From IMG/VR virus record IMGVR_UViG_3300037454_000319: a stretch of 64,000 bases of DNA; one strand, given 5' to 3'. Origin of the DNA: a virus. The translations under genes were made by a program, and so were the position numbers. Below the pieces are notes generated by a model. The model did not search any database and had not been told where the DNA came from. It was given only the letters and a program-made list of their open reading frames with translations. The first letter of the stretch is position 1; each line of letters begins with the position of its first letter. Shown piece after piece: positions 1,741 through 50,311 of this stretch.

Positions 1741-1756
1741 TATGATTATTTTAAAT

Positions 1757-1830
1757 GGTGGGGCGGGCGAGACTTGAACTCACAACACCTTGGGCTTCAA
1801 CCAAGTGCTCTACCATTGAGCTACCGCCCC
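1757..1830 (-). tRNA. tRNA-Phe (GAA)
   Basis: loop TTGAAGC; D-arm AGCTCAATGGTAGAGC; encoded CCA. Confidence 0.65.
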
Positions 1831-1837
1831 ATTAAAA

Positions 1838-1913
1838 TGGTGCCTATAGCCAGACTTGAACTGACAACTTGTCGCGTATGAGACGACTGTTCTACCAATT
1901 GAACTATACAGGC
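1838..1913 (-). tRNA. tRNA-Met/Ile2 (CAT) copy 1
   Basis: loop CTCATAC; T-arm GGTTCAAGTC. Confidence 0.55.
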
Positions 1914-1916
1914 ATT

Positions 1917-2036
1917 TGGTAGAGTCAATGAGCCTTCCACTCATACCTCGGGGCACCCCTGCCCCGCGTGCTATCTAAATCGACTTCTCAGTGACGTCAC
2001 CTCTGATAGTTTCAATCGCCACTACACTTTGACTCC
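1917..2036 (-). ncRNA. 120-nt tRNA-like element (acceptor GGAGTCA/TGACTCT-ACCA, T-like arm, GC hairpin cggggca-gggg-tgccccg) with ~45-nt extra sequence
   Basis: 7-bp acceptor pairing and encoded ACCA but far too long for a standard tRNA; could not be folded into cloverleaf. Confidence 0.3.
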
Positions 2037-2046
2037 ATTAAAGAAC

Positions 2047-2123
2047 TGGTACTCACAGCCAGACTTGAACTGACAACTTCTTCCACGTCAAGGAAGCACT
2101 CTACCAATTGAGTTATGCGAGTA
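2047..2123 (-). tRNA. tRNA-Val (GAC)
   Basis: loop TTGACGT. Confidence 0.6.
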
Positions 2124-2127
2124 TTAA

Positions 2128-2204
2128 TGGCACCCCATGAAGGACTCGAACCTTCAACCTTCAGATTAGAAATCTGTTGCTCTGTCCAATTGAGCTAATG
2201 GGGC
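2128..2204 (-). tRNA. tRNA-Arg (TCT)
   Basis: loop TTTCTAA. Confidence 0.55.
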
Positions 2205-2207
2205 ATT

Positions 2208-2283
2208 TGGTTGCGGTGGCGGGACTCGAACCCACGGCCTTCAGATAATGACTCTGACGAGCTACCAACTGCTCCACACCGCG
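2208..2283 (-). tRNA. tRNA-Met/Ile2 (CAT) copy 2
   Basis: loop GTCATTA. Confidence 0.5.
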
Positions 2284-2579
2284 ATAAATATGCCTATTGA
2301 AAAGTTTGCAACCATTTCGGAAAGGCTGTCCAAGTCAATTTTACGTCTGAGGCTCAGCGACGGAAACACTGACGTGGTTTCGGGTAACGACTTTCTTCGT
2401 CCGAAAGCAAGACTGGAAATTCCTTTCAATTTCCGAAGTCAACTTATACTTTGCATAAGCAACTCAACCTAACTCAGCATAGGTCGCTGCTCCGTTACTC
2501 TACAACAGAGACAAAACTCATCACCTGCTACGACGGTGAAACGCGTACGTTTAGTGCTTTAAAGAGACACTATCTGAAC
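2284..2579 (-). ncRNA. ~295-nt noncoding element inside tRNA array (candidate structured RNA)
   Basis: no minus-strand ORF; flanked by complete tRNAs; shares motif GGAAAGGCTGTCCA with 5201-5215. Confidence 0.3.
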
Positions 2580-2582
2580 TCT

Positions 2583-2655
2583 TGGTTCCCGTTGAAAGAC
2601 TCGAACTCTCATCGCTGGCGTCAGAAGCCAGTGTCCTACCATTAGACGAAACGGA
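2583..2655 (-). tRNA. tRNA-Gln (CTG)
   Basis: loop TTCTGAC. Confidence 0.55.
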
Positions 2656-2723
2656 ATTATTGGAGTTTTAAACTCCAATCTTGTGAGTAAGTTTAATGTC
2701 CATTAATCTCACATTAGGACAAT

Positions 2724-2800
2724 TGGTCTCCCTGACGGGAATCGAACCCGTGTCTCTGGCTTGAAGGGCCAGCGTCTTTGACCGCTTGACTACAGGGAGA
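2724..2800 (-). tRNA. tRNA-Glu (TTC)
   Basis: loop CCTTCAA. Confidence 0.6.
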
Positions 2801-2832
2801 TTTCTGGCGGAGCTATTGCCCCGCCTTAGGGA

Positions 2833-3246
2833 TTAACCCTCAGTCTTCTCAGGGTTTGTCTTAGCAACGTAAGGTGTACCTGTGAAAGTATAACCCTTAA
2901 CCTTGCCCTTACCGTTTGCAGACTTCTGCTGCTCAGCCTCTACGAAGCAACCCTCTGTAACAAGTGCTCTAAGAAGAGCAGATGCCTTCTGAGTGTTCTT
3001 AAGGTTGAAAGCAGTTGCAATTTCGCCTGCTGTGTAAACCTTGTCGGCTACAGCGTTAGTAACAATCTGCTCCTTAACCTTCTCGTTCTCAAGCTGCTCA
3101 GGAGTAAGCTTTGCACGTCTGTTTGCGTTCTTCTGCTCAATGTCAGCAATTCTATTTGTTGCATAAGCAACAAGGTCAGGCTCAATACCCTCGATAGCAA
3201 GTACTGCATTAAGGAACGCTCTCTCAGTCATTTTCTCGTTAGCCAT
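2833..3246 (-). CDS. hypothetical protein (137 aa)
   Basis: ORF track; own promoter copy upstream; RBS. Confidence 0.55.
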   Translation of the reverse strand: MANEKMTERAFLNAVLAIEGIEPDLVAYATNRIADIEQKNANRRAKLTPEQLENEKVKEQIVTNAVADKVYTAGEIATAFNLKNTQKASALLRALVTEGCFVEAEQQKSANGKGKVKGYTFTGTPYVAKTNPEKTEG

Positions 3247-3317
3247 AATAGCCCTCTCTTTCTGTGGTTTTATCCACGTTTAAAATTGATTTTTGTTTTG
3301 AAAAGTCTTTCTCAACC

Positions 3318-3359
3318 TTTTCTATAATTATTATACCATGTTTTATAGAAAAAGTCAAA
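3318..3359 (-). promoter_or_regulatory. conserved promoter copy 2
   Basis: -10 3330-3335, -35 3353-3358, spacer 17. Confidence 0.7.
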
Positions 3360-3379
3360 TTTTTATTTTCCTTTCGGAA

Positions 3380-3455
3380 TGGTCGGGGTGGAGGGACTCG
3401 AACCCTCAACCTTCAGATTAAGAGTCTGCTACTCTGCCAGTTGAGTTACACCCCG
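3380..3455 (-). tRNA. tRNA-Lys (CTT)
   Basis: loop CTCTTAA. Confidence 0.55.
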
Positions 3456-3730
3456 ATTAATTGCTGTTTGATTGACTTGTATCTTATTCCTAACAGCTTA
3501 GGAAGGATATTGCCCATCAGTGAATATCCAAGACTGCTGGGGCTTTTCGCACCGCGGTTGCGCCAGTTTATTGTCAGTCAAACGGGGCACTGGAACCATT
3601 CCCCACGGATAACTATACCGCGAAGGCAGATAACAACTGCGTGTCCCCTCTTACAACGCCAGCGGAGTTTGCGTTGCTTTGTATGTTAAGGCTTCACAAA
3701 GCGGAGCCACCAACCCGTTTTTACTTCCTG
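3456..3730 (-). ncRNA. ~275-nt noncoding element inside tRNA array 2 (candidate structured RNA)
   Basis: no minus ORF; same size and position class as 2284-2579. Confidence 0.3.
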
Positions 3731-3745
3731 TCGGCACCAGAAGAT

Positions 3746-3820
3746 TGGTCACCCCTACGGGAGTCGAACCCGTGTCTTCAGATTGAGAATCTGACGTCTT
3801 CGCCACTTGACTAAGGGGTG
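3746..3820 (-). tRNA. tRNA-Glu (CTC)
   Basis: loop TTCTCAA. Confidence 0.55.
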
Positions 3821-3928
3821 ATTAGTTCGGTTTTACTTTGCTTCTTTATATAGCGTTTTCCACTAAGCCACATACCAGCTATGCTGTCGGTGGTAGTTTA
3901 AACCGTAAATCCATGTTAACGCTTCTGG

Positions 3929-3945
3929 TGGACAATATGGGAATC
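3929..3945. repeat. 17-bp direct repeat tggacaatatgggaatc (copy 1), truncated tRNA 3' segment flanking GIY-YIG gene
   Basis: identical 17-mer at 4659-4675 inside tRNA-like gene. Confidence 0.7.
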
Positions 3946-3946
3946 T

Positions 3947-4576
3947 TTATCCCCAAGTCCATTTATATCCATAAGCACTTTTTCTTTTACCTCTACAAAC
4001 TGAAGAAATATGAGAAGAAGCACCATTGGAAGTTGTAGTTATTTTTCCCAAAGCTATTGCTGCAGCCTTAGCCGATGGAAAAGATTGTATATATTCGCCA
4101 TCAAGAGAATACTGATTTACAATTTTACCATTAACTTTTTGACTAACTTGACTATGAGAAATTATATTTATTCCTTTTTCTTTAAGGATTAAATAAACAC
4201 TGTCAGCAGAAATATTCATAATTCTTGCAACTTCTTTACAATTCAATGTAGCTTTATATGTTGCTACCACTAAATCGTAATCAATATAAGGACGACCATC
4301 GCCGCCAGTTGTTGCATTATAACCATTTTTAAAAGAACCATAAAATTCAATCCAATACTTTTCTCTCTCTTCTGGAGAAGAAGTTTCTTCAATTAATTCT
4401 ACTGTAAAATTTTCAACTCCATATTTCTGCATAGCATCATATAAAGGTCTCTTTTCACATCGTTCTTTTAAACTATCTTGACAATGTTCTTTAAATCTTT
4501 CCTGAATGGTTTTATAGGTTTTCCCTATATAAATCTTACCATTGATAAGATTTGTAATTTTATAAACGTATGCCAA
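3947..4576 (-). CDS. GIY-YIG homing endonuclease with C-terminal HTH (NUMOD-like) DNA-binding region
   Basis: N-terminal YKITNLINGKIYIGKT (GIY...YIG), conserved R/E/N; C-terminal ...SSHISSVCRGKRKSAYGYKW motif; located in tRNA array like T4 segB. Confidence 0.8.
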   Translation of the reverse strand: MAYVYKITNLINGKIYIGKTYKTIQERFKEHCQDSLKERCEKRPLYDAMQKYGVENFTVELIEETSSPEEREKYWIEFYGSFKNGYNATTGGDGRPYIDYDLVVATYKATLNCKEVARIMNISADSVYLILKEKGINIISHSQVSQKVNGKIVNQYSLDGEYIQSFPSAKAAAIALGKITTTSNGASSHISSVCRGKRKSAYGYKWTWG

Positions 4577-4658
4577 AACTAATCAGCTCCTGTTATTTGT
4601 ATTCTACTACGTTAGTGTTAACCAAGAGTCACCGCGTGGAGGTGTAGTAACGACTCTC

Positions 4659-4735
4659 TGGACAATATGGGAATCGAACCCATCTGATTTCCTGTTTGCA
4701 AAACAGGCGACCACTCCATGCAGTCCCAAAGCCCA
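4659..4735 (-). pseudogene. tRNA-like gene (anticodon TGC, Ala-like loop TTTGCAA) with non-pairing acceptor stem; contains repeat copy 2
   Basis: good anticodon and T arms but 5'/3' acceptor strands not complementary; adjacent HE. Confidence 0.35.
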
Positions 4736-4763
4736 TTTAAAATTGTTTTTGTTCTCTCTTTAT

Positions 4764-4802
4764 TTTCTATATATTATATCATAATATATTAGAAAAGTCA
4801 AA
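4764..4802 (-). promoter_or_regulatory. conserved promoter copy 3
   Basis: -10 4773-4778, -35 4796-4801. Confidence 0.65.
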
Positions 4803-4839
4803 TTTTCTTTTTGCTGTGGGTTGCAGCCGTTATTTGTTC

Positions 4840-4913
4840 TGGAGCGAGATAAGGGAATCGAACCCTCGCCTCCTCCATGGCAAGGAGGAATTCTACCGCT
4901 AAACTAATCCCGC
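4840..4913 (-). tRNA. tRNA-Gly (GCC)
   Basis: loop TTGCCAT. Confidence 0.6.
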
Positions 4914-4919
4914 ATTAAT

Positions 4920-4994
4920 TGGTGGGCCTACGGGGACTCGAACCCCGAACTACTGATTAAAAGTCAGCTGTGTTGCCAATTACACCATAAGCCC
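4920..4994 (-). tRNA. tRNA-Lys (TTT)
   Basis: loop CTTTTAA. Confidence 0.6.
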
Positions 4995-5068
4995 ATTTCA
5001 ACGCTGGTGGTATCCAAGACACCTTTCCGCCGCCAGCTCGACGTTTCATAGGTCTTAAATTCAATAAT

Positions 5069-5155
5069 TGGTCGGCAGGGAAGGACTCGAACCTTCGATG
5101 TTTCAATGTCACGGATTTACAGTCCGCTGGTTTCGCCGCTTTCCACACCTGCCGA
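5069..5155 (-). tRNA. tRNA-Tyr (GTA), long variable arm
   Basis: 87 nt, loop CTGTAAA. Confidence 0.6.
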
Positions 5156-5251
5156 TATTTGCCTATTCATTTTCTACCTTTATAAAGGTACGTCTTATTG
5201 GAAAGGCTGTCCAGTTGACGGAAGGTTTATGAGTACAACCTACAAAACGAT

Positions 5252-5331
5252 TGGCGCCTCCAACGGGGCTCGAACCCGCAACCTCGCTGCGTGACAGGCA
5301 GGTGTTCTATCCTGATTTGAACTACAGAGGC
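5252..5331 (-). tRNA. tRNA-Asp (GTC)
   Basis: loop CTGTCAC. Confidence 0.5.
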
Positions 5332-5461
5332 ATCGTCAGTTGATTAAACGTGTTCATAGCAAATCTTCATTGACGGCGAGGGCTGACAAGTCTAATCTTG
5401 ACTCAGCTTTCCACAAACCACCGACGTGGGTGTGACCCACTACTTATGAACTTTTATTAAT

Positions 5462-5538
5462 TGGCGGGAAGTATAGGACTCGAACCTATGACACCGCGGT
5501 TAACAGCCGCGTGCTCTAACCAACTGAGCTAACAACCC
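5462..5538 (-). tRNA. tRNA-Asn (GTT)
   Basis: loop CTGTTAA. Confidence 0.6.
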
Positions 5539-5547
5539 ATTTTAAAT

Positions 5548-5622
5548 TGGCGGTCCAGAAGGGAGTCGAACCCTCGTCTTTCGGGAGACAACCGAACATT
5601 CTACACGTTAAACTACAGAACC
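5548..5622 (-). tRNA. tRNA, anticodon GTC? (loop TTGTCTC), encoded CCA
   Basis: cloverleaf plausible; pyrimidine at position 37 is unusual. Confidence 0.4.
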
Positions 5623-5666
5623 ATTTGATTGGAAGCTTTTCCTTCAGAGGACGGTTTACCAACCGA

Positions 5667-5708
5667 TTTTCTATATATATTATATCATGTTTTTCAAAAA
5701 AAGTCAAA
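5667..5708 (-). promoter_or_regulatory. conserved promoter copy 4 (drives tRNA array 3)
   Basis: -10 5679-5684, -35 5702-5707. Confidence 0.7.
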
Positions 5709-5715
5709 TTTTCTT

Positions 5716-6015
5716 TTAAAGTTTAATTACATCATCTTTCTCAAATCCTTCATCTTCAAGACGAGTGAAGAACTCATCTTCGTCTACTTCAGTTACTACA
5801 TAATCGCAGTTATCAAAGTAATAATCTTCATCTTCCTGAGAGTCGAAGCCTTCTCCAAAGGTATAGCCTTCAACTCCAATAACATTTTGTTCTGCCCAGT
5901 CATAAAGACCTTCTGCCATATAAGCATATACAGCATCTATATTATCTGCTTCAAAAAAGAAGACATTATCACTATTTTCGCAATAACCGTTATCGTATTC
6001 ACCAATAAACTTCAT
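5716..6015 (-). CDS. hypothetical acidic protein
   Basis: ORF track; RBS. Confidence 0.5.
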   Translation of the reverse strand: MKFIGEYDNGYCENSDNVFFFEADNIDAVYAYMAEGLYDWAEQNVIGVEGYTFGEGFDSQEDEDYYFDNCDYVVTEVDEDEFFTRLEDEGFEKDDVIKL

Positions 6016-6027
6016 TTCTTTTCCTCA

Positions 6028-6069
6028 CTTTCTATAATTATTATATCATAAATTCTAAGAAAAGTCAAA
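6028..6069 (-). promoter_or_regulatory. conserved promoter copy 5
   Basis: -10 6040-6045, -35 6063-6068. Confidence 0.7.
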
Positions 6070-6259
6070 TTTTTCTTTTTGTTTCTCTCCGTAAGCATCG
6101 GCGCCACGTAAAGGCGGAAACATTAGCCGATATTTCCTTACTACTCTCCAAATGGAGAACTTCAGCGGGCTTTCAACCGTACTACTGGCAGGTAGGTGTT
6201 ATAATACTGCCATACTATAACTGAGGGTTCATTTTCCTTTACTCACCCACAAGGGTAAT

Positions 6260-6336
6260 TGGTCCAGCCAGCGAGATTCGAACTCACGACCTCCGCGTTA
6301 TCAGCACGTTGCTCTACCTACTGAGCTATGACTGGA
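6260..6336 (-). tRNA. tRNA-Ile (GAT)
   Basis: loop CTGATAA. Confidence 0.6.
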
Positions 6337-6339
6337 TTT

Positions 6340-6415
6340 TGGAGCTGGTGGACGGATTCGAACCCCCGACCTGCTGATTACAAATCAGCTGCTCTACCGA
6401 CTGAGCTACACCAGC
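6340..6415 (-). tRNA. tRNA-Thr (TGT) copy 1
   Basis: loop TTTGTAA. Confidence 0.55.
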
Positions 6416-6474
6416 ATTTATGAGAGGCTGGGCTGAAGCTCCACTTAGTTTCCTCTCATTGAGGTTGTGCCCTC

Positions 6475-6552
6475 TGGAGGTAGCGGAGGGAGTCGAACCC
6501 TCGTCTTCGGTTTTGCAGACCGACGTCTTAGCCACTTGACTACGATACCTCC
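6475..6552 (-). tRNA. tRNA-Cys (GCA)
   Basis: loop CTGCAAA. Confidence 0.6.
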
Positions 6553-6573
6553 ACAGAGCACAACCATTAAAGG

Positions 6574-6741
6574 TTATGCACCTATTACATTCCAACACTC
6601 ATATTCGTATTTAATGTTCCAAGCACGCTCTTTTTCAAAAGCTTCTTTGTCTCGAAGCATTAAACCTTTGGTCTTATAGACGTCAATCACCTTTCTTGTT
6701 TTAGCAATTTCGTCTACCATATAAAGAATATATACACTCAT
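6574..6741 (-). CDS. small hypothetical protein (55 aa, MSVYILYMVDEIAKTRK...)
   Basis: not in ORF track (<60 aa); follows promoter copy 6 with purine-rich RBS. Confidence 0.3.
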   Translation of the reverse strand: MSVYILYMVDEIAKTRKVIDVYKTKGLMLRDKEAFEKERAWNIKYEYECWNVIGA

Positions 6742-6761
6742 GTTTCTTCTTTCCTTTCCGA

Positions 6762-6803
6762 TTTTCTATAATTATTATATCATAGATTTTGAAAAAAGTC
6801 AAA
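6762..6803 (-). promoter_or_regulatory. conserved promoter copy 6
   Basis: -10 6774-6779, -35 6797-6802. Confidence 0.7.
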
Positions 6804-6977
6804 TTTTCTTTTTGGTTTTTGAAATTCATACTCAGCCCCGCGCTTGCATCGACTTCCTTCTCACCGAATGAGAGCGTTCTACTTTATAAACTATCCCTGC
6901 GTTGGCTCATAAGCAAGGAGTGATAGGCTTAGAAACCTATTCCATATGAACTTCTGTGAGTTTGATTGGTAAACTCT

Positions 6978-7055
6978 GGTCTCCTCCAAGGGACTTGAAC
7001 CCTCATAAGACACAGCTTCGTAGGCTGCCGCATTCTCCATTATGCTAAGAGGAGA
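6978..7055 (-). tRNA. tRNA-Arg (ACG)
   Basis: loop CTACGAA; D-arm GCATAATGGAGAATGC. Confidence 0.6.
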
Positions 7056-7094
7056 TATTAGTGGGAATTAAAGTTTTTCCCACTCTTCATAAGT

Positions 7095-7170
7095 GGAGCT
7101 GATGACAGGAATCGAACCTGCAACCTTGTCCTTACAAGGGACCTGCACTACCTATTGTGCTACACCAGCA
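7095..7170 (-). tRNA. tRNA-Thr (TGT) copy 2
   Basis: loop CTTGTAA; same acceptor GCTGGTG as copy 1. Confidence 0.5.
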
Positions 7171-9992: not shown

Positions 9993-10459
9993 TAATCATA
10001 GTCCTCCTCATCGAAATCTACTTCGGACATATCGCAGTCCTCATACATTTGCGCTTTTACTTCAAGCTTATTATACTTATCTACAAGTTCGTTATACTCA
10101 AGACGAAGATTTTCATAGAGCGCTTCATAGTCAGGTTCAATATAACCGTATGCAAGACGAGATTCGTAAGACTCCATATCTGTATATTCTGTCTCTGCGA
10201 AGTATTTCTTAAGCTCTATAACCTTATCAATGTTTTCCTGAGTATCAGATAAATGACAAAGCTCAATCATAATTATCTTGGGCTGTGCCGCCACAGCAAG
10301 GTTGAGGACAGTTTTAATGTCGTCCATCTTATCTGTGTCATAGATTACGATACCAGCTAACTTGTTAAGAGAATTAAGGTCGGCAGTCATATCGTAATAA
10401 TCCTGTATTGCGAAAGCGTCCTCACCGAACTCTTCAAAAGTTTTATATTCTAAAATCAT
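9992..10459 (-). CDS. hypothetical acidic protein
   Basis: ORF track. Confidence 0.5.
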   Translation of the reverse strand: MILEYKTFEEFGEDAFAIQDYYDMTADLNSLNKLAGIVIYDTDKMDDIKTVLNLAVAAQPKIIMIELCHLSDTQENIDKVIELKKYFAETEYTDMESYESRLAYGYIEPDYEALYENLRLEYNELVDKYNKLEVKAQMYEDCDMSEVDFDEEDYD

Positions 10460-10477
10460 AATATCGCTCCTTTTTCA

Positions 10478-10519
10478 TTTTCTATATATATTATAACATA
10501 AAATATAAAAAAAATCAAG
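10478..10519 (-). promoter_or_regulatory. conserved promoter copy 9 (-35 variant TTGATT)
   Basis: -10 10490-10495. Confidence 0.6.
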
Positions 10520-10530
10520 TTTTTATAAAA

Positions 10531-10553
10531 AAAGAAGCGCACAAGGCGCTTCT
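10531..10553 (-). terminator. intrinsic terminator gaagcgc-acaag-gcgcttc + T-run
   Basis: 7-bp stem then TTTTTTT on minus strand just after CDS 10557..11168. Confidence 0.7.
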
Positions 10554-10556
10554 ATA

Positions 10557-11168
10557 TCACTTCAATAAATCCTTTAAGTCCATGCCATTCATGACTTCTA
10601 AAGTGGAGAAAGTCCAGTTAAGCAATGCTTCAACTGCTTTAATGAAGTCTTTCTTCTCCTTTGGTGTATCGCACTCATCGAACTTCTCTTCGATTTCTGC
10701 AATTATTTCGTGGAGCTTTGTCTTACTATATGGGTCAGTTTCATCTGCGGCTTTCTCCTGAACAAATCTAACGAGCTTATCTTTAGCCTCTATTGCTTCG
10801 TTCAATTCCTTATCATTTTCACAAAAATTGCTAAGCTTCTGTTCAATAGAGTTAATATCTACTGGCTTACCATGAAGAAATGCTTTACTAAGGTCGATAG
10901 GCTCCTTATCCTTAAGGCATGGACCTTCTGTAAGAACAAGTAACTTATTCTTATGAATAGTAAAGTCATAGTGATATTCTGTTGATATTGCATTATATGC
11001 ATCTACAGCTTCACGAACCTTGTCAATTGCATTGGTAAGGTCTCTATCAAGCTGCTCAAGCTTTCTCTCGTTAGCTTCCTTCTCTATCCTCTGGGCACAC
11101 TTTGTGGCACACTGAGCCATGTCAGTAGCAGTTTCATATGACTTATTACAAATTGGACACTTATACAT
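10557..11168 (-). CDS. hypothetical protein with N-terminal Cys4 zinc finger
   Basis: CPIC...C..C motif. Confidence 0.5.
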   Translation of the reverse strand: MYKCPICNKSYETATDMAQCATKCAQRIEKEANERKLEQLDRDLTNAIDKVREAVDAYNAISTEYHYDFTIHKNKLLVLTEGPCLKDKEPIDLSKAFLHGKPVDINSIEQKLSNFCENDKELNEAIEAKDKLVRFVQEKAADETDPYSKTKLHEIIAEIEEKFDECDTPKEKKDFIKAVEALLNWTFSTLEVMNGMDLKDLLK

Positions 11169-13717: not shown

Positions 13718-14848
13718 TTAATCCTCCTTTGGCAGTTCTATCTTAAATAATGAAATGAACTTAGATGTGGTCATATCAGTAAATAAAGAATCTAAACGAC
13801 CGTCAAAAGCAGCGAAGTAAAGTGCCGCAGCCTTGTTCTTTCCGAAGTCCTGCGCGAACCACTTACGAGCAGTACGGTCGCCCTCTCCAAATGGGTGCTC
13901 CTTCTTCCATAATGATACAACTCTCTTTATTTCATATACTAATATATCTATTGCTTCAAGCTGTAATCTAACCTTAGTAAATGTATCCTCATACTCAGGA
14001 AAGTATGATAAAAACTCTGCGTCATCATTCTCACGAATTAAATCTACAATACGCTCTAAAGTAATTACTCCGTTGTTCTTTGCCTTGTGCATTTGGAAGT
14101 AAAGTAAAGTCTTAATCTTAACACGCTCATAGTTCTTGTCACATACAACAATACCTTCATGACCTTCAGGCATATTTGCGACAAGCTGACGATATTCTGC
14201 TTCATCTTCAAGGAGATATGTCTTAGGACAGCTAACTCCTAATTCTTTTGCAATTTGCCGAGCCGCAGGAGTTTCGTGAAGGTCTTCAGATAGCATATTA
14301 CGTGCAGAAAGAAGATATACCTTAGTCTCAGGATAGTCAATAACAACCTTGTTATAAGGAGATACAAGCTCGAAAGTTAAGCAATAAGGCTCATAACGGT
14401 TACCCACGAAGGCGGATAGAGGAAGTACAGACTCGAAGAGGTCTCCGAAAGTCTTATAAGGACCTACGCCGTTAAGCTCAGCCTTGAAAGCATCTATCTT
14501 GCCGTTTGTTGATATATGCCACTTGCCGCGAGCAAACCATACAGACATTATAGAGCCATCTATCTTCTCAGATGCAACGGCAGTATCCCAGTCTATATGA
14601 GCTGCATAGGACTCGTCTATATTGAAGAACTTCTTGAACGCATAGCGAACTACCTTGAAGTCATCACGAGCATCAAGGATAAGACCACGAGCCTCGCGGC
14701 AAATTTCCTCGTTAAAGTCAGAGTCTATCTGGCTATACTTGAAAAGAACGAAGCCGTCGTCCTCAGAAATTTTTAAGTTGTAAGGCGCATCAGCTAAAAG
14801 TTCACGCCAGTTATCATGTGCAAGGATAAACTCCTGTATTTTTAACAT
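13718..14848 (-). CDS. ATP-dependent RNA ligase, T4 Rnl1-like
   Basis: nucleotidyltransferase motif I EKIDGS (KxDG); ~375 aa like T4 Rnl1; genome rich in tRNA and other RNA-repair genes. Confidence 0.55.
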   Translation of the reverse strand: MLKIQEFILAHDNWRELLADAPYNLKISEDDGFVLFKYSQIDSDFNEEICREARGLILDARDDFKVVRYAFKKFFNIDESYAAHIDWDTAVASEKIDGSIMSVWFARGKWHISTNGKIDAFKAELNGVGPYKTFGDLFESVLPLSAFVGNRYEPYCLTFELVSPYNKVVIDYPETKVYLLSARNMLSEDLHETPAARQIAKELGVSCPKTYLLEDEAEYRQLVANMPEGHEGIVVCDKNYERVKIKTLLYFQMHKAKNNGVITLERIVDLIRENDDAEFLSYFPEYEDTFTKVRLQLEAIDILVYEIKRVVSLWKKEHPFGEGDRTARKWFAQDFGKNKAAALYFAAFDGRLDSLFTDMTTSKFISLFKIELPKED

Positions 14849-16180: not shown

Positions 16181-16194
16181 TAAAAAAAAGAAAA

Positions 16195-16210
16195 GGAGCA
16201 TTACTGCTCC
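16195..16210 (-). terminator. intrinsic terminator ggagca-ttac-tgctcc + T-run
   Basis: hairpin followed by TTTTCTTTTTTTT on minus. Confidence 0.65.
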
Positions 16211-16212
16211 TT

Positions 16213-16785
16213 TTAAAATCTTCTTCCAGAGAAGAAGCCTTCTTCTGTATAGTCAATATTGTGATTATATGGAACGACTCTTATCTTGAAACGATAGTGA
16301 GTGTCGTCAGGGTTAACGAATGAACGCTCTACTGTTAAATCGAAGTTATTATCTTCCTGCATAATATCACGTGCAAATTCCTGTGCCACCCTATCAAGGA
16401 ACTGTTTCTTGGCATCGGGCACGTTTAAGAAGAATGAGCCGTCAACATGGATATCACGCACATATTCAATTGGCTGTGTCATAAAGGTTTCAAACTTCAA
16501 AGGACGGTTTTTATATTCATTAATTTGGTCTTGAAGGAACGCATTATTACGAGACAGTTCTTTGTTATTTTTCTTCATACGGACGGCAGTTTCATATAAT
16601 TCACTAATTTCATGGTTTTTTTGCAAGATTATGTCGTTTTTATTGTCAATTCTTTTGTCTCTTATTTTTACTTCATTCTCCAAGTCAGCAATCTTTTCAT
16701 CTCTGTCGGCAATCTTTATAACGAATATACAACCTTCAATGAAGAGAAAACCTATTAATAGGATAATATCTAATACTGGGTTCAT
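16213..16785 (-). CDS. membrane-anchored coiled-coil protein
   Basis: N-terminal TM helix then heptad-rich region. Confidence 0.5.
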   Translation of the reverse strand: MNPVLDIILLIGFLFIEGCIFVIKIADRDEKIADLENEVKIRDKRIDNKNDIILQKNHEISELYETAVRMKKNNKELSRNNAFLQDQINEYKNRPLKFETFMTQPIEYVRDIHVDGSFFLNVPDAKKQFLDRVAQEFARDIMQEDNNFDLTVERSFVNPDDTHYRFKIRVVPYNHNIDYTEEGFFSGRRF

Positions 16786-17705
16786 TAACCTTCCTCCTTA
16801 TCTGCCTTACCCTCAACGAAATCCATGAAGTCAAGATGTCCACCTGTTGATGTGTATGCGTAGTAAGCCAATATCTGAGAAGCATCGACTGCATTGATGA
16901 AACCGTCATTATTTACGTCGCCGCGCTCAAGGCTTATATCCATTATAAGAATTTCATACATTTCTATTTCATCTTCATATGCCATTATCTGAGCGAGATA
17001 TGTTGCGTTTTGAGCTTTAAGCTTTTCATTTTCTGCTTCATACTGAGCTGTATCGGAATGATACTCCTCAATTTTATAACCGTCCATGTTGAGGATGTCT
17101 GGTGTGATTACAATTTCATGTCCGAAGATTTGGAAAGTATATGTACCTGTTGGCTCTACGGTTGGAGTAAATGTTATACTATGAAGCGCATTACCATTAG
17201 TTCCAGATTTAGGTCTCTCTTCAGAAAAACCTAATGTTGGAAGTGTTGTTGGCATATAAATTGAACCTACATCAAGTATCGCACAACCATTATAAAAATA
17301 TTCTTTTTTATATTCTTTAGGATACAAGTTAACATGGAAATCTTCAACATCAAATGGTGTTCTATCTTTTATTATTAAATCAATAGTTGCATCTAAATTT
17401 GCATCACCGTCTGGTTGCTGAGAAAAAGGGAGTTCGCCAAAAGTCAATCTATGTGAAATAGTTGCGAAACCATCCCACTCATGGGTATTCCACCAATAAA
17501 CCTTAACTTCTCCGTCATTATAAATATCCGCTTCGACAGCAATATAAGGATACTTCATATCTGCGTTGTCATCAATCCAATATGAAGTTGTCCACTTCTC
17601 TGTCTTAACAACCTCTGGCTCAATAACTTTCGCATCAACACTCAGCAAGCTGAGGTTGCAAAAAGCTATTGCAAATGCCATTAATATACCTATAAACTTC
17701 TTCAT
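16785..17705 (-). CDS. secreted protein with signal peptide and C-terminal dockerin-like repeat (GDVNNDGFINAVDASQILAYYA)
   Basis: N-term MKKFIGILMAFAIAFCNLSLLSVDA; C-term Ca-binding dockerin motif. Confidence 0.6.
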   Translation of the reverse strand: MKKFIGILMAFAIAFCNLSLLSVDAKVIEPEVVKTEKWTTSYWIDDNADMKYPYIAVEADIYNDGEVKVYWWNTHEWDGFATISHRLTFGELPFSQQPDGDANLDATIDLIIKDRTPFDVEDFHVNLYPKEYKKEYFYNGCAILDVGSIYMPTTLPTLGFSEERPKSGTNGNALHSITFTPTVEPTGTYTFQIFGHEIVITPDILNMDGYKIEEYHSDTAQYEAENEKLKAQNATYLAQIMAYEDEIEMYEILIMDISLERGDVNNDGFINAVDASQILAYYAYTSTGGHLDFMDFVEGKADKEEG

Positions 17706-17716
17706 AATACTTCTCC

Positions 17717-18046
17717 TTACTTATAAATATGGTTATCTTCGATTGAATTATCTTCCATTAGCTTATATCCGCAATTAGAACAGAACCTATCTTCTACTTC
17801 AATTACTTCCTCACATTTAGGACATCTTGGTTCTTCTTTTTTTAGTTTCAATTTCTCTCCTATATAAATAGGAGATATTAAGCCGCCTATTAATACTACC
17901 AGAGACAAAAATGTAAGAACGAATCCCATTATAGGATGCTCGTCTTCAATATCTAAAACTTTTTCAAAGATGAACATAAATCCAAAAAAGCCTATTGACG
18001 CACAAATAATAATCAAGATAAAGAATAAAATTAATTTTAAAATCAT
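17717..18046 (-). CDS. membrane protein with C-terminal zinc ribbon
   Basis: 2 TM + CPKC...CSNC. Confidence 0.5.
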   Translation of the reverse strand: MILKLILFFILIIICASIGFFGFMFIFEKVLDIEDEHPIMGFVLTFLSLVVLIGGLISPIYIGEKLKLKKEEPRCPKCEEVIEVEDRFCSNCGYKLMEDNSIEDNHIYK

Positions 18047-18693
18047 ACTCTTTTACCTGCCTTTCTGCCAAAAGTTATATCAAATAACTTATCGCCAAAT
18101 CTTAACTTTTTAAACTGTATTGTGCCGCCCTGCTCAATCTTCTCCCAATCAGCCTTATCAACTTCAAAGGTTGAAGTCTTTTCATTATAAAGTCCTATTA
18201 CTTCATAACGCTCCGTATGGTCGCGGCGGCGCAGGTCACCAAGCTGTGGATTGGGAACATCAAATGGCTTATCACATTCAGGCTCATGTGGTTTCTTATC
18301 AAAGCCCATTTCGCAAACTGAATGTGACTTACACCACTCATTTCTTTTATAATGATAACGTGTTGTGTAATAAACTTCTTGATGTGTCCGTGCTGCATGG
18401 TAATGTCCATCTGAGTCTGTATAAGCTGGACTATCTGTTACAGTTCGATAATGCGTATCAAGTGTAGTATAAACATCATATGCATCAGAAGGTGGACATG
18501 ATTCCGAAGAATGGGAGCAAACTTTGTATTCCTCAATAGGAATTGTCCATATCCACCGTGTACGGTCTACTTTCATTTCGCCACTGATTGGAATTGCAAG
18601 GAACAAAATTAGTGCGGCGAGCACTGTAAGTATCCCGCCGCCAATGCAAGCTTCCGAGTGGTCGTAGTAGAAATCTTTAATTTTCTCCCACAT
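18043..18693 (-). CDS. membrane-anchored hypothetical protein, Cys/His/Tyr-rich ectodomain
   Basis: ORF; N-terminal TM. Confidence 0.5.
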   Translation of the reverse strand: MWEKIKDFYYDHSEACIGGGILTVLAALILFLAIPISGEMKVDRTRWIWTIPIEEYKVCSHSSESCPPSDAYDVYTTLDTHYRTVTDSPAYTDSDGHYHAARTHQEVYYTTRYHYKRNEWCKSHSVCEMGFDKKPHEPECDKPFDVPNPQLGDLRRRDHTERYEVIGLYNEKTSTFEVDKADWEKIEQGGTIQFKKLRFGDKLFDITFGRKAGKRV

Positions 18694-18694
18694 C

Positions 18695-19006
18695 TTAATT
18701 CTCCTTTACTGGAAGTTCGAATGTTTTATCGCCAATTGTATAAGTAATTTTAACTACCTTATCATTCTCTCTGTACTCATTAACTTGTACCTGAGACCAA
18801 TCAATCGACTCAATTTTTGTAGCTGTTATCTGTTTATAAGCTGCAATGATACTGTCCATTGTGGCGAGACACATGAACACAGTTAAAGGAATACCAATAA
18901 AAGTTCCTAATTTATTTATATCGGTATCTTCACATGAGAGCATAGCAGTTAAAAGCATAGCAAGAAGTGGAGTGACGATTGTTCCTATTATTGCAATTAT
19001 TAACAT
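18695..19006 (-). CDS. membrane protein (start MLIIAII, RBS AGGAGGG)
   Basis: ORF trimmed. Confidence 0.45.
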   Translation of the reverse strand: MLIIAIIGTIVTPLLAMLLTAMLSCEDTDINKLGTFIGIPLTVFMCLATMDSIIAAYKQITATKIESIDWSQVQVNEYRENDKVVKITYTIGDKTFELPVKEN

Positions 19007-19007
19007 C

Positions 19008-19244
19008 TTAACCCTCCTGTGCTCTGAGGATAAGGAGAGTCTTATTATCATTCTTACTCCAAGAGTAATAACCTACCTTTGTGTCCTTAGAGTAGAAACC
19101 ACCAGAGATTTGAATAAATGTTCCATTTGCCCAATATGTGCCACCTATGAAGATTAAGCCATCACCATAGCGCTCATATTCCTTAATATAGATACCATTT
19201 GTACCTTCGAGGATTTCGCCTAAAGTCATTACCTTATCCATCAT
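19008..19244 (-). CDS. hypothetical protein
   Basis: ORF. Confidence 0.45.
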   Translation of the reverse strand: MMDKVMTLGEILEGTNGIYIKEYERYGDGLIFIGGTYWANGTFIQISGGFYSKDTKVGYYSWSKNDNKTLLILRAQEG

Positions 19245-19263
19245 TTTCTCCTTTCAGAAAATC

Positions 19264-19518
19264 TTAGTCGTTGCCCTTAACGTTCTTTACAATAGTTCTA
19301 AGGAAGCCCAGTGCAATCTCAATAACGAGCGCCCACAGTGCTGCCTGCTTCCATGTCCATGCGGCAATTACGCCAAGCTTACAAAGTGCCCACATTCCAG
19401 CTCCAACAAACAATACTGATATACCATAGCCAATGGCAAGGGCTACCAGAAGAATAAGAAGGAATACGAGACAACCTCCAAGTGTGTACTTTGAACCTCT
19501 GTTGTAATTAATTTTCAT
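19264..19518 (-). CDS. small membrane protein (start MKINYNRG, RBS AAGGAG)
   Basis: ORF-track N-terminus is promoter. Confidence 0.45.
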   Translation of the reverse strand: MKINYNRGSKYTLGGCLVFLLILLVALAIGYGISVLFVGAGMWALCKLGVIAAWTWKQAALWALVIEIALGFLRTIVKNVKGND

Positions 19519-19554
19519 AGCTTTACTCCTTTCAAATAAATGGTTTTCTTTAAC

Positions 19555-19596
19555 TTTTCTATAATAATTATACCATGATTTATAAAAAAAATCAAA
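19555..19596 (-). promoter_or_regulatory. conserved promoter copy 13 (-35 TTGATT)
   Basis: -10 19567-19572. Confidence 0.6.
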
Positions 19597-19607
19597 TTTT
19601 CTTTTCT

Positions 19608-19985
19608 TTACCACCAAACATGAAGTACAAATTCATCGGGTATTTCGCCATCTTCAACAAGTTTGATAACTATCCTATCTATTTTGTTAAAAAGTTCGGC
19701 TTCTTCTTCTGTTAAATTATAGCAGTAAGCGTCATCACGTGCTGTCCAATCTGCTCTAAAGTTATCTAAAACGTCCATATCATAGAAAGTTCCATTTCCA
19801 TATATGTCTACTATACTCCAGCCGATATGGTCACGAACCTTATCTAATGTAGAATAACTCTCATACTCTTCCTTACGCAAAGACTTATGAAAAGCATCTG
19901 TGTCCTCATAACCCATTTTCTGAGCTATGAGATTTTCAAAGTCATGAATATCTACAACTGGAAGCATCTTAACTATTCTGTTCAT
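19608..19985 (-). CDS. hypothetical protein
   Basis: ORF. Confidence 0.5.
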   Translation of the reverse strand: MNRIVKMLPVVDIHDFENLIAQKMGYEDTDAFHKSLRKEEYESYSTLDKVRDHIGWSIVDIYGNGTFYDMDVLDNFRADWTARDDAYCYNLTEEEAELFNKIDRIVIKLVEDGEIPDEFVLHVWW

Positions 19986-24278: not shown

Positions 24279-25211
24279 TTATCTATTCTTAAGCATATCT
24301 CTTACATATGTCATTGTAAGTGAACCACAAACCTTACCGAAGTTCTCGCAAGCGGTAACTACCTCTGGCTCCTCCTTACGGCAGTCCTCATACATCATCT
24401 TAGGAAGAACCTTTGCAATCGCACTCATGTCATGCTCGTCCCAATCAGGTCTGAGTTGCCCCTCGTCCACAAGCTTCTGGAGACACTTCTCAACTCTACG
24501 CTCAGTAGCGATTGATGCGACATACTGTCTCTCAGCCTCTCTCTTCTTAAGCTCCTCGGGGTCAACAGGCTTCTTATGGTCATGATGAACCTCAGAAAAC
24601 TTCTCTGCGACAATCTTGAGGTATGTAGGAAGTCTATTGCTCTTGTCATCAAGTCTATCCTGAGACTTAATTACAATACCCTCACCGCAAGGCTCTGCTC
24701 CGAGCATTGTTTGACCAACAAGCTCATATACAGTATCCCAACCTCTGAACTCGCCTGTGTAGAAAACAGGTACGAAACGGATTACTTGCTGTGTAAGCTG
24801 TGCCGCCTTCTCAAGTCCATTAAAGATTGCAAGTGTGTCGATATGTGGAAGGTATTGCTCAGTCTCAGTATCCCATACGTCGAACATATAGAAGTTCTTG
24901 TACTTGTCATCAGGATAACGGATAGTATGCTTTGTAAGCCACTCACCGAAGATTACGTATCTGCCGTGCTGAGTGAGCATGTCAATTTGAGATACCTTAA
25001 GTTGCTGTGCCCAATTCCAAAAACCATTGAGGTTATTGCTCTCATTGAGCTGGTTCTTACGAGAAAACGCAAGAACAGTATTTGTGTCGGGGTCGTATGT
25101 GAAGGAAGCGTTTGAACCGTCAACCTTCTCAGTAATTGTTATCTGCTCTCCAATGGTAAAAGCAACATCGTACTTCTCCTTGAAGCGCTCAATATCCATG
25201 TAATGCTTCAT
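24279..25211 (-). CDS. nucleotidyltransferase ligase, Rnl2-like RNA ligase (or ATP-dependent DNA ligase)
   Basis: motifs I EKVDGSN, III YVIFGEWL, IV EGIVIK, V YLKIVAEK. Confidence 0.55.
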   Translation of the reverse strand: MKHYMDIERFKEKYDVAFTIGEQITITEKVDGSNASFTYDPDTNTVLAFSRKNQLNESNNLNGFWNWAQQLKVSQIDMLTQHGRYVIFGEWLTKHTIRYPDDKYKNFYMFDVWDTETEQYLPHIDTLAIFNGLEKAAQLTQQVIRFVPVFYTGEFRGWDTVYELVGQTMLGAEPCGEGIVIKSQDRLDDKSNRLPTYLKIVAEKFSEVHHDHKKPVDPEELKKREAERQYVASIATERRVEKCLQKLVDEGQLRPDWDEHDMSAIAKVLPKMMYEDCRKEEPEVVTACENFGKVCGSLTMTYVRDMLKNR

Positions 25212-33488: not shown

Positions 33489-33491
33489 TAT

Positions 33492-49372: not shown

Positions 49373-50311
49373 TTATTGATAATAGAAGTGGTTCTGGTAC
49401 CCATCGCCCCACCAGCTATTATCTGAATTGAACTCATTAGTATGAGCAAAGTAATAGTCTACTGCGTCATAGCACGCCTGTGAAGGAGTGCAACAACCTG
49501 GCCAATAACCTGTAAATTGATTTGGCGCTACCAATACAGAATAAACTGTATTTGGGAAACGTGGGTCATTAACGCGGTTCATTACACCAGCAACGACTTT
49601 TGCTTTGTTATACTGACTTATCCAGTTTGAGCCTGCCTCATGCCAAGTAATCTCAGCGAGAAGCTGTCTACTGTAATCATCAATTCCTGCCGCAACAGGA
49701 GTAGGCTCTACATAAGGTGTTATAATTTCTATCTCTGGATTACATTCTGTACATTTTCGACATTCAATTCCTTCTGTTGTTTCAATTTCAATTAACTGTT
49801 CATTCGCCCCAAGGTCTGCATTACACCAATGGCAAGACGCTTTATGAATGTAATGTGTGTTTGGTTTGAAATAGATTTTTTCTTTTGTTACTGCTGAAAC
49901 CTTCGGGTGAGCATTAATATAATGGCTCTTAACACACAAAGGCTCCTCATCAGTAGTCGTAGATATATAGCAGTAGTATGAGAGGATTGCGGAAGCATCA
50001 ACTGAGTCGATACTCCCATCCTCATTTACATCTGCTGCTTTTTTCTGCGCATCTGTTAATATGTTTTTGTCTGTTGAAGAAGCTGCATATGCGCTTAATA
50101 CATATGAAGCATCAATTGCATTTACATATCCATCTCCATTTACATCACCGAGGCTTAGTTCTTTTTCAACAGTTGTTTCCTCAACTATTTCGGTAATAGT
50201 TGTTTCTGAAATAAGATTTTCAGACCCCGCTGTTGTTAACGGTTTAGTTGCCAGCATAAGCGCGATAAATGCTATCACGCATAGGGCTACACATATAATT
50301 TTCTTTTTCAT
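49373..50311 (-). CDS. secreted dockerin-containing SleB/CwlJ-like cell-wall hydrolase
   Basis: signal peptide MKKKIICVALCVIAFIALMLA; two dockerin repeats DVNGDGYVNAIDASYVL / DVNEDGSIDSVDASAILSYY; C-term AEITWHEAGSNW...VVAGVMNRVNDPRFPNTVYSVLVAPNQF (Hydrolase_2-like). Confidence 0.65.
   Translation of the reverse strand: MKKKIICVALCVIAFIALMLATKPLTTAGSENLISETTITEIVEETTVEKELSLGDVNGDGYVNAIDASYVLSAYAASSTDKNILTDAQKKAADVNEDGSIDSVDASAILSYYCYISTTTDEEPLCVKSHYINAHPKVSAVTKEKIYFKPNTHYIHKASCHWCNADLGANEQLIEIETTEGIECRKCTECNPEIEIITPYVEPTPVAAGIDDYSRQLLAEITWHEAGSNWISQYNKAKVVAGVMNRVNDPRFPNTVYSVLVAPNQFTGYWPGCCTPSQACYDAVDYYFAHTNEFNSDNSWWGDGYQNHFYYQ

Follow-up and report, generated by a model that had tools for sequence, protein, structure and literature searches.

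Organization of the gene and of its product

A gene coding for a putative secreted protein, which terminates with a single dockerin repeat, is carried by a stretch of 64,000 nucleotides of the virus record IMGVR_UViG_3300037454_000319 of IMG/VR; this whole stretch is referred to below as the window. The gene spans positions 16785..17705 on the minus strand, where all the other features of the window located in the following sections also lie, and is closed by a stop codon at 16785-16787. An earlier note on this DNA had described here an open reading frame (ORF) for a phage-encoded protein of 306 amino acids (aa), with a signal peptide, a short coiled coil and a C-terminal dockerin. Translation from ATG to stop yields a product of exactly this length; the strand, not given in the note, was added. 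A Shine-Dalgarno sequence, AAGGAG, is located 7 nt 5' of the ATG (17713..17718) and overlaps the stop codon of the upstream gene.

A model of the protein, built with AlphaFold2 (AF2) from 79 homologues, has a mean predicted local distance difference test score (pLDDT) of 82. Its elements are, in order, a signal helix (aa 2-20), a beta-rich domain (32-200), a long helix (219-261), a loop and two short helices (272-286 and 293-305).

A Sec signal peptide is predicted for aa 1-25 (17631..17705), where the initial MKK is followed by the hydrophobic core FIGILMAFAIAFCNLSLL and by a putative signal peptidase I (SPase I) cleavage site between VDA and KV, and where the AF2 model places its first helix. 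The same layout is found throughout the family of homologous proteins described below: among 160 members, the residue at position -1 is Ala in 156 and that at -3 is Ala or Val in 138, Lys occupies position +1 in 149, and a basic n-region, i.e. K or R within the first eight residues, is present in 158. The signal peptide claimed in the note is therefore well founded, its canonical n/h/c layout being conserved family-wide. By its basic n-region, hydrophobic h-region and small residues at -3 and -1, the protein is assigned to the Sec/SPase I secretory proteins.

The C-terminal dockerin repeat

The end of the protein, aa 262-306 (16788..16922), was classified as a single-repeat, group-2-type dockerin by combining Pfam searches, sequence matches in PDB, the AF2 model and a family profile. 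The peptide quoted in the note as a calcium-binding loop, GDVNNDGFINAVDASQILAYYA, was located at residues 262-283. The loop itself spans D263-D274 and its calcium ligands at positions 1, 3, 5 and 12 (D263, N265, D267 and D274) are intact; positions 1 and 12 are invariably D in the family alignment. It is followed by a predicted cohesin-binding helix (272-286) and by a second helix (293-305), both modeled with a pLDDT of 74-86.

The Pfam search proposed in the note, with Dockerin_1 (PF00404), gave a dockerin match (E=0.0013) over aa 262-279, corresponding to positions 2-19 of the 57 of the profile; its score, 19.4 bits, is below the gathering threshold of 22.9 because only one of the two repeats of the model is matched. 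Within the family, 38 of 79 scanned members match the same profile at E<=0.01, the best of them at E=7.1e-5. A phmmer search against PDB sequences returned dockerins only as top matches, namely the ScaH dockerin of R. flavefaciens (8ajy_B, E=1.2e-5) and a group-2 dockerin of the same species (9gvb_B, E=1.4e-4). The construct crystallized in the latter entry, RfDoc2, was aligned by BLASTP to the window protein with 19/37 identities (51%, E=3e-10).

A profile was also built on the last 45 residues of 25 diverse family members. When compared to PDB, it matched 8ajy_B (1.9e-19), 9gvb_B (3.1e-17) and the XDoc of CttA (4iu2_B, 2.9e-12), and the alignment to 9gvb_B extends over positions 2-43 of 45, including the extra C-terminal helix. 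When compared to all stop-to-stop ORFs of the window with 40 aa or more (659), it matched only two, the target and a further, genuine dockerin protein encoded at 49373..50311. In view of the PDB and profile matches, of the intact calcium ligands and of the specificity among the 659 ORFs, the motif is identified, at the level of sequence, as a true dockerin repeat, and both a chance match and a generic EF-hand are ruled out.

The 'type-I dockerin signature' of the note holds up with a refinement: the PDB and profile matches support a dockerin repeat, and this is of the single-repeat, group-2 type. The possibility that the repeat is a degenerate type-I dockerin was rejected, as it fits the naturally truncated group-2 dockerins of R. 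flavefaciens FD-1 (PDB 9GVB).

Comparison with known dockerins

The group-2 dockerins of R. flavefaciens FD-1 were defined on five sequences, all C-terminal and with a single calcium-binding repeat, and were initially regarded as possibly incomplete, or else as the sign of a new binding mode (Rincon et al. 2010, PMC2930009). They have since been described to bind the cohesin of the cell-wall-anchored scaffoldin ScaE, in a study according to which no other naturally truncated dockerin is known to be functional (Duarte et al., J Biol Chem 2025, PMC12270676). According to the same study, in the module a calcium loop precedes the single cohesin-binding helix, and a further loop leads to an additional helix; in the crystal 9GVB two antiparallel RfDoc2 copies are bound to each cohesin, so arranged that their four termini are near one another and Phe29 clasps the other copy; and a Gly-Arg pair at positions 10/11 is the recognition pair common to groups 2 and 4 (PMC12270676). 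The ScaE cohesin also binds group-4 dockerins, among them those of CttA and ScaH, and these dockerins are involved in the anchoring of the cellulosome to the cell wall; 8AJY, 9GVB and 4IU2 are dockerins solved on this cohesin (PMC12270676). The three best PDB matches of the family are therefore all dockerins solved on CohScaE.

The likeness to RfDoc2 concerns both architecture and sequence. The phage protein also has a single calcium repeat at its extreme C-terminus, and the order of calcium loop, predicted cohesin-binding helix, loop and extra helix is the same; by analogy, two copies per cohesin would be expected here as well. Identity is 51% for the window protein and up to 70% for its relatives, in which the F/Y-G-D start and the Gly-Arg pair are found: one of them, P0046, shares with RfDoc2 31 of 44 residues (70%, E=1e-20), F-G-D and Gly-Arg included. 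Gly-Arg occupies positions 10/11 in 14 relatives, and F-G or Y-G, equivalent to Phe29, is present in 54.

The differences are equally evident. RfDoc2 is bacterial and known from five FD-1 sequences, whereas the phage family is carried mainly by large phages and comprises over 130 clusters. In addition, the phage repeat is preceded by a leucine zipper, through which the two copies could be brought together in advance, the comparison being with RfDoc2 as a His-tagged construct of 72 aa (P0310), and the N-terminal passenger domain of the phage family is found in no protein outside it.

Group-4 dockerins (ScaH, 8AJY; CttA XDoc, 4IU2/4IU3) provide the best sequence matches and share the DA..LL.YYA helix and the extra C-terminal helix, but they contain two repeats in one chain, along with an X module in CttA, whereas the phage protein has one repeat. 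The canonical type-I dockerins (PF00404; Cel48S and Xyn10B of C. thermocellum) share the F-hand calcium loop, with ligands at 1, 3, 5 and 12, and the helix that follows; compared to them the window protein is a half module, and the sequence of its helix is of the ruminococcal group-2/4 rather than of the clostridial type. A complete classical two-repeat module is attached to the same N-terminal domain in two remote family members, P0144 and P0181.

In the searchable literature, no dockerin was found to be reported for a Ruminococcus phage, and no single-repeat one for any source other than FD-1. The sole virus-borne dockerin found there was annotated, as a domain, on the contig of a putative ANME-2 virus (ISME J 2026, PMC13452462). 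It resembles the present case in that a dockerin lies beside a signal-peptide protein and an effect on cell-surface adhesion was proposed, but it is archaeal, has a NosD-like beta-helix passenger, is known from domain annotation alone, and lacks both the layout of single repeat plus zipper and a family-level analysis. The crystallized construct alone was retrieved when the 41-aa RfDoc2 module was used as query, the word index limiting such short queries. What is new in the present family is, as judged from these comparisons, its phage origin, the obligatory partnership with a zipper and the orphan passenger domain, while the docking module itself belongs with the group-2/group-4 ruminococcal dockerins.

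The coiled coil and the single repeat

The coiled coil that the note had placed before the dockerin is confirmed by a single AF2 helix at aa 219-261 (16923..17051) with a clean a/d heptad register, and by Pfam matches. In 79 aligned sequences, Ile occupies a=226 in 66 and Leu occupies d=229 in 78; at the next heptad, a=233 is Asn in 69 and d=236 is Leu in 72. In zippers of the GCN4 type, this combination of Leu at d with a core Asn at a marks a dimer whose helices are parallel and in register. The coil is accordingly predicted to form a parallel homodimer of the GCN4/bZIP type. Across the family, the coil matches the Pfam models bZIP_1, bZIP_2, HALZ, TSC22 and DivIC; a match to DUF6537 (E=0.0097) was rejected as a composition artefact.

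The relationship between spacer and number of repeats was evaluated in the 143 members containing the anchor motif GH[DE]I.I.P[ED].L. A spacer of at least 30 aa before the calcium loop (median 46), occupied by the coiled coil, is associated with one repeat in 135 of them. Two members, the already mentioned P0144 and P0181, have a 5-aa spacer, no coil and the complete classical two-repeat dockerin, which is confirmed in P0144 by precomputed Pfam annotation. No calcium loop was detected in the remaining six: three are truncated right after the anchor motif and the others are variants in which the loop is not recognizable. Since the only members without a coil are those that carry a full two-repeat dockerin, the association, which is the strongest argument internal to the family, is suggestive of a functional equivalence between zipper plus one repeat and a two-repeat dockerin. 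Docking probably involves the coil as an integral element.

The protein family and its modularity

A search of a set of 5.8 billion proteins identified 129 homologues of the window protein at E<=1e-3, all of them unnamed and 270-450 aa long. A profile limited to the N-terminal domain, run exhaustively over 1.84 billion representative proteins, gave 85 matches, all with the same architecture, and in this set no fusion of the domain to any other domain was found: the domain occurs nowhere outside the family. A tblastn comparison of the protein with 50,697 GenBank phage records gave no match, and hence no annotated relative among them.

The beta domain is organized in two conserved cores separated by a hypervariable insert. 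The N-terminal core, aa 26-90 (17436..17630; KVIEPE...WTTSY.IDD..YPY..ADIYNDG..WNTHEWDGF), is defined by invariant or nearly invariant columns and is modeled with a pLDDT of 90-96. No conserved columns are found in the insert, aa 91-178 (17172..17435), while they reappear in the C-terminal core, aa 179-208 (17082..17171; TF.PTVEPTGTY.F..FGHEI.ITPD.L). The length of the whole N-terminal domain varies among relatives from 164 to 282 aa.

No match of assignable function was obtained for the domain in Pfam, PHROG, NCBIfam or PADLOC. The only PHROG match of the target is phrog_7395 (function not annotated, E=0.051), and neither PADLOC nor PHROG relates it to known families of anti-phage defence or superinfection exclusion. 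Foldseek comparison of the model with PDB and BFVD gave nothing at E<=1e-3, and the domain has no match, by sequence or fold, among the carbohydrate-binding module (CBM) and glycoside hydrolase (GH) families of carbohydrate-active enzymes (CAZymes).

Selection was evaluated by comparing the window allele to its counterpart (10001-10927) in L011, a related phage of 146 kb, at about 71-73% aa identity, and by computing the ratio of nonsynonymous to synonymous substitution rates (dN/dS) for each segment. The first core (aa 26-90) is 74% identical, with a dN/dS of 0.10, and the second (aa 179-208) 100% identical, with a dN/dS of 0. For the coiled coil (aa 209-261) the values are 98% and 0.02, and for the dockerin (aa 262-306) 93% and 0.08. 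The insert (aa 91-178) is 34% identical and its dN/dS is 0.83. Coil and dockerin are under strong purifying selection, while the central insert diversifies; the latter behaves like a surface exposed to diversifying pressure. In the same comparison, synonymous divergence falls markedly from the 5' half of the gene (dS 0.9-1.4) to the 3' half (0.4-0.6). Such a pattern is suggestive of a recombination breakpoint within the gene, with the coil-plus-dockerin cassette having moved as a unit.

Across the family, the identity between dockerins is nearly uncoupled from that between N-terminal cores (r=0.29). In 175 discordant pairs the cores are at least 85% identical and the dockerins at most 45%; in other pairs dockerins 100% identical are attached to cores just 60% identical. 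Twenty-one different residue pairs are found at recognition positions 10/11, and some remote members contain a single repeat of the classical clostridial type. The dockerin thus behaves as an exchangeable module, conserved within a clade and tracking the host.

Chromosomal copies and host assignment

The Ruminococcus-type host suggested in the note, a cellulose-degrading gut bacterium, agrees with the best dockerin matches, which are all from R. flavefaciens, and with the presence of family copies in Ruminococcus and Oscillospiraceae genomes. Three copies were found by scanning one genome per GTDB species. The copy in the isolate Ruminococcus sp. XPD3002 adjoins a transposase of an insertion sequence (IS), a full-dockerin fragment, an XRE regulator, a toxin-antitoxin pair and a tRNA-Met; that in a metagenome-assembled genome (MAG) of Ruminococcus sp. 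adjoins a resolvase and a dockerin-bearing CotH protein. The third, in an Oscillospiraceae rumen MAG, lies at a plainly chromosomal site, between dihydroorotate dehydrogenase and a His-phosphatase/DegV/MetRS group. In addition, one cluster member is deposited under an R. flavefaciens MAG.

In the three bacterial loci the GC content of the gene is far below that of its flanks (46 vs 58-59%, 33 vs 38-44% and 31 vs 38-41%), while in the phage contigs the two agree. As the gene is compositionally foreign in the bacterial loci and at home in the phage contigs, the family looks native to phages and secondarily captured by hosts. Such capture would agree with some advantage for the cell, exclusion for instance, and is no proof of it.

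In XPD3002 (locus L008, NZ_FPJT01000009.1), an ORF of 115 aa (1607-1954), resembling the C-terminal remnant of a larger protein, is located directly 5' of the family gene. Its C-terminus is a complete dockerin, with two repeats, of the same DA..L..YS.LSTG type, and the IS-type transposase adjoins the ORF.

A second dockerin protein of the phage

The additional dockerin protein detected by the family profile, and also by Pfam, is encoded at 49373..50311 and is 312 aa long, starting from MKKKII. It consists of a signal anchor, a full two-repeat dockerin, a Cys-rich linker and a SleB-type cell-wall hydrolase. Both Pfam matches are above the gathering threshold: Dockerin_1 (E=2.9e-12, 47 bits) and Hydrolase_2 (31 bits). 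Its best dockerin match in PDB is again that of ScaH (8ajy_B, E=6.6e-9), and the recognition residues are A-I and S-V, similar to A-V in the target.

The hydrolase belongs to a family of over 300 clusters, most of which have a Thr-rich linker where the dockerin sits, and 96 of 120 relatives are devoid of any dockerin; a dockerin was acquired only in the clade of this phage. The hydrolase is independent sequence evidence that this phage lineage exploits dockerin-cohesin docking, and the product could be a cohesin-docked lysin.

The phage and the gene neighborhood

The phage origin attributed to the gene in the note is supported by the content of the window, which includes 38 tRNA genes, RNA ligases of the T4 types RnlA and Rnl2, an RtcB-like protein, a polynucleotide kinase, a Dda-like helicase, ThyX, and homing endonucleases of the GIY-YIG and HNH classes. 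All genes are on one strand and GC content is 35-42%, features by which the window is attributed to a large phage of virulent type. Relatives are found in equivalent contexts within phage-like contigs of 146, 174, 202 (IMG/VR) and 228 kb.

The gene is the penultimate one of a run of small membrane-protein genes, outside any structural or recognizable lysis module. Upstream, the block at 17717..19617 was defined by ORFs and transmembrane (TM) prediction and codes for proteins of 109 aa (TM plus Zn-ribbon), 216 aa (TM), 118 aa (two TM) and 117 aa (three TM); it is conserved in L011. Downstream, the gene at 16213..16785 codes for a 190-aa protein with an N-terminal TM segment, a coiled coil and a C-terminal domain; its ATG overlaps the stop codon of the target (TAATG), an arrangement indicative of translational coupling. 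The pairing with this gene is kept in L011 and absent in the distant relatives L005 and L006. The 190-aa protein was therefore rejected as an obligatory partner, since it accompanies the family in the close clade only.

A terminator-like hairpin, with a 10-bp stem and a T-run, ends the putative transcription unit of the target at 16191..16214. A sigma-70 promoter-like site with 12/12 consensus positions and an extended -10 is located just past it (16179-16151), and a second promoter-like site is found upstream of the membrane-protein block (19595-19567). Such sites are not more common in the region than in shuffled sequences (18 vs 21.6).

Proposed mechanism and alternative explanations

The following course of events is proposed. 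The infected cell would export the protein via Sec, and signal peptidase I would process it, as the canonical signal peptide conserved across the family leads us to infer. The mature protein would then consist of the orphan beta domain with its diversifying insert, of the zipper and of one group-2-type dockerin repeat. By forming a parallel homodimer, the zipper would set two half-dockerins side by side, and both would fill the two binding sites of one wall-anchored ScaE-like cohesin on the Ruminococcus host, one dimer reproducing the 2:1 arrangement crystallized for RfDoc2 on CohScaE. The phage-made protein would be displayed on the surface of the infected cell and on wall debris, and the dockerin-bearing cell-wall hydrolase probably uses the same platform. 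Export, dimerization, cohesin binding and 2:1 geometry are here all deduced from sequence data. The docking of two half-dockerins of an exported zipper dimer on one wall-anchored ScaE-like cohesin is considered fairly probable, and the phage probably uses the docking system of its host to decorate the infected cell.

Several observations weigh against this scheme. The Dockerin_1 score of the window protein itself is below the Pfam gathering score. Its recognition positions 10/11 are occupied by Ala-Val, not Gly-Arg, and before G-D the clasping Phe29 is replaced by Arg261. The specificity of the window dockerin, and possibly its pairing mode, may therefore differ from those of RfDoc2, and because of this divergence, along with the identity of 51%, its cohesin target is probably not FD-1 ScaE itself. 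RfDoc2 also binds 1:1, hence dimerization is not strictly required. In the clade of the window protein, the AF2 helix enters the calcium loop directly, with no flexible linker, which may constrain antiparallel pairing. The control provided by the two-repeat members without coil is a single lineage of two close relatives, with a context limited to a 2.8 kb contig, and the oligomeric state is the one predicted from the heptads.

As to the purpose of such decoration, masking of the surface or superinfection exclusion is the preferred guess, though a rather unlikely one when taken by itself. Cohesin-borne structures, once occupied or shielded, would stop other phages, or the phage's own progeny, from adsorbing, and the insert would be the face exposed to the arms race. 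Exclusion is favored because the insert diversifies, the site is non-structural, the dockerin resembles those bound by the anchoring rather than by the enzyme-integrating cohesins, and hosts keep lone copies of the gene. Exported phage proteins that block receptors or entry are represented by Llp of T5, Cor of phi80 and N15, Ltp of the S. thermophilus phage TP-J34 and lactococcal Sie2009. The resemblance to them is one of functional analogy only: a non-structural phage gene, an N-terminal export signal, a location in the envelope, a plausible expression from a host-type promoter, and lone copies kept in host chromosomes. In contrast, these proteins have no similarity in sequence or fold to the window protein and are lipoproteins or membrane proteins rather than cohesin-docked ones, and exclusion by the window protein is a guess. 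The wider proposal is offered as tentative: large Ruminococcus phages would employ the cohesin-dockerin system of the host as a platform for exported proteins of their own, by means of a split dockerin of a kind not described before, in which a zipper joins two single-repeat chains; the displayed orphan domain would be a new surface-modifying or exclusion factor, lone copies of which Ruminococcus chromosomes would have domesticated.

The most probable alternative, although still an unlikely one, is that the gene is an accessory to the cellulosome or to auxiliary metabolism, the N-terminal domain being an unrecognized carbohydrate-binding or catalytic module which is plugged into the host cellulosome and sustains or boosts adhesion to fibre and sugar supply during infection. 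It would agree with the fact that most dockerin proteins of R. flavefaciens are CAZymes, CBMs or unknowns (PMC2930009), with the functional GH5 and GH9 genes known in rumen phages (PMC10465536), with a conserved core rich in W, Y, H, D and E, as is typical of sugar-binding sites, and with the persistence of single-gene copies in Ruminococcus and Oscillospiraceae chromosomes, one of them beside the dockerin-bearing CotH protein. However, a domain that varies in length from 164 to 282 aa, and a third of which evolves at a dN/dS of 0.83, is unexpected if the ligand is an invariant polysaccharide, the gene is compositionally foreign in those chromosomes, and the best dockerin matches bind the cell-anchoring cohesin of ScaE and not the enzyme-integrating cohesins of ScaA and ScaB. 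The binding of CttA and ScaH, and of anchoring group-4 dockerins in general, to ScaE (PMC12270676) could instead be taken to indicate an accessory to lysis or egress, which either regulates or scaffolds the SleB-type hydrolase or displaces partners of the ScaB and CttA type from ScaE, causing infected cells to detach from fibre ahead of the burst. The similar recognition residues of target and hydrolase, and the coupled 190-aa neighbor with its TM segment, coiled coil and weak matches to spanin and endolysin PHROGs (E=0.003-0.04), would fit such a role. It is nevertheless improbable: 32 kb separate the two genes, which are not transcribed together, the dockerin is retained in the target family but missing from 96 of 120 hydrolase relatives, the PHROG matches of the neighbor are driven by the coiled coil and not significant, and the lone chromosomal copies have no lysis context.

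Two further explanations assign a different role to the C-terminal repeat. If it were a decayed or purely structural calcium-binding F-hand, with no cohesin binding, the protein would be secreted or anchored otherwise; a single repeat with a sub-threshold Pfam score, the absence of Gly-Arg and of the clasping Phe in the window copy, and the initial suspicion that truncated dockerins are non-functional (PMC2930009) could be quoted in its favor. This is slightly more improbable than a lysis accessory, given the dN/dS of 0.08 in the dockerin and the dockerins 100% identical on N-terminal cores 60% identical. The full group-2 architecture is also kept, extra helix included; 135 of 143 members have the module at their very end, and in the lineage without coil a complete dockerin takes its place; natural group-2 dockerins do bind (PMC12270676), and the same phage invests in a second, full dockerin. 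Very improbable, and the least probable of all, is an adsorption device in which the dockerin is carried by the virion and a host cohesin acts as receptor. The affinity between dockerin and cohesin would be effective for a receptor interaction, the hypervariable insert recalls the variable tips of receptor-binding proteins, and Foldseek detects a likeness to the fibre heads of lactococcal phages and adenovirus at non-significant E values (about 0.5-1). A cleavable Sec signal peptide in about 98% of the members, however, directs the protein out of the cytoplasm, where virions assemble, and a virion role was rejected on account of this conserved signal. The gene is moreover located in a membrane-protein block flanked by genes for RNA ligase and nucleotide metabolism, a long way from the large, structural-looking ORFs of the 54-63 kb region; no structural PHROG family is matched, and lone copies are kept in bacterial chromosomes.

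If the proposed docking on a ScaE-like cohesin holds true, the phage uses a host system of protein-protein docking, and not the membrane or the peptidoglycan, to place both the present protein and a cell-wall hydrolase on the cell surface. To the five single-repeat dockerins of FD-1 the family adds over 130, whose recognition positions are occupied by many different residues. Pairing mediated by a zipper may be considered as a hypothesis for the avidity of half-dockerins and may be useful in the design of cellulosomes with short tags. The type of dockerin would provide a marker of host range, readable from sequence, for uncultured jumbo-type phages of rumen and gut. Finally, a diversifying insert, combined with lone copies captured by hosts, recommends the family as a tractable subject in the search for a new function in exclusion or surface remodelling.

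Additional features of the phage genome

The 38 tRNA genes make up two arrays, at 1667-7169 and 33344-39187, which cover most amino acids; for one call (33492-33566, 'tRNA-???') the anticodon has two bases only. An HNH gene is located inside the second array (36609-37124). A set of RNA-repair genes is found at 13718-14848, 24279-25211, 31617-33065 and 40871-41788, coding for RnlA-like, Rnl2-like, RtcB-like and polynucleotide kinase/phosphatase-like proteins, the RtcB-like one matching phrog_850 at E=1e-109; the set suggests counter-defence against host anticodon nucleases.

The GIY-YIG domain is at the C-terminus of a 346-aa ORF (46581-47621), and a GIY-YIG gene lies immediately 5' of the family member in the distant relatives L005 and L006. 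ThyX, a flavin-dependent thymidylate synthase (E=1e-59), is encoded at 47819-48610 and has a zinc-ribbon-like C-terminal extension.

The region 52643-62826 contains genes whose products are devoid of signal peptides: a GH113 glycoside hydrolase (E=4e-92), a GT2 glycosyltransferase, a BspA-type leucine-rich repeat (LRR) protein of 551 aa, and two large ORFs, of 1185 and 813 aa, for which neither Pfam nor PHROG gave a match. LRR proteins are among the carriers of group-2 dockerins in R. flavefaciens. The genes of this region may code for surface-recognition and depolymerase proteins associated with the virion or its tail.

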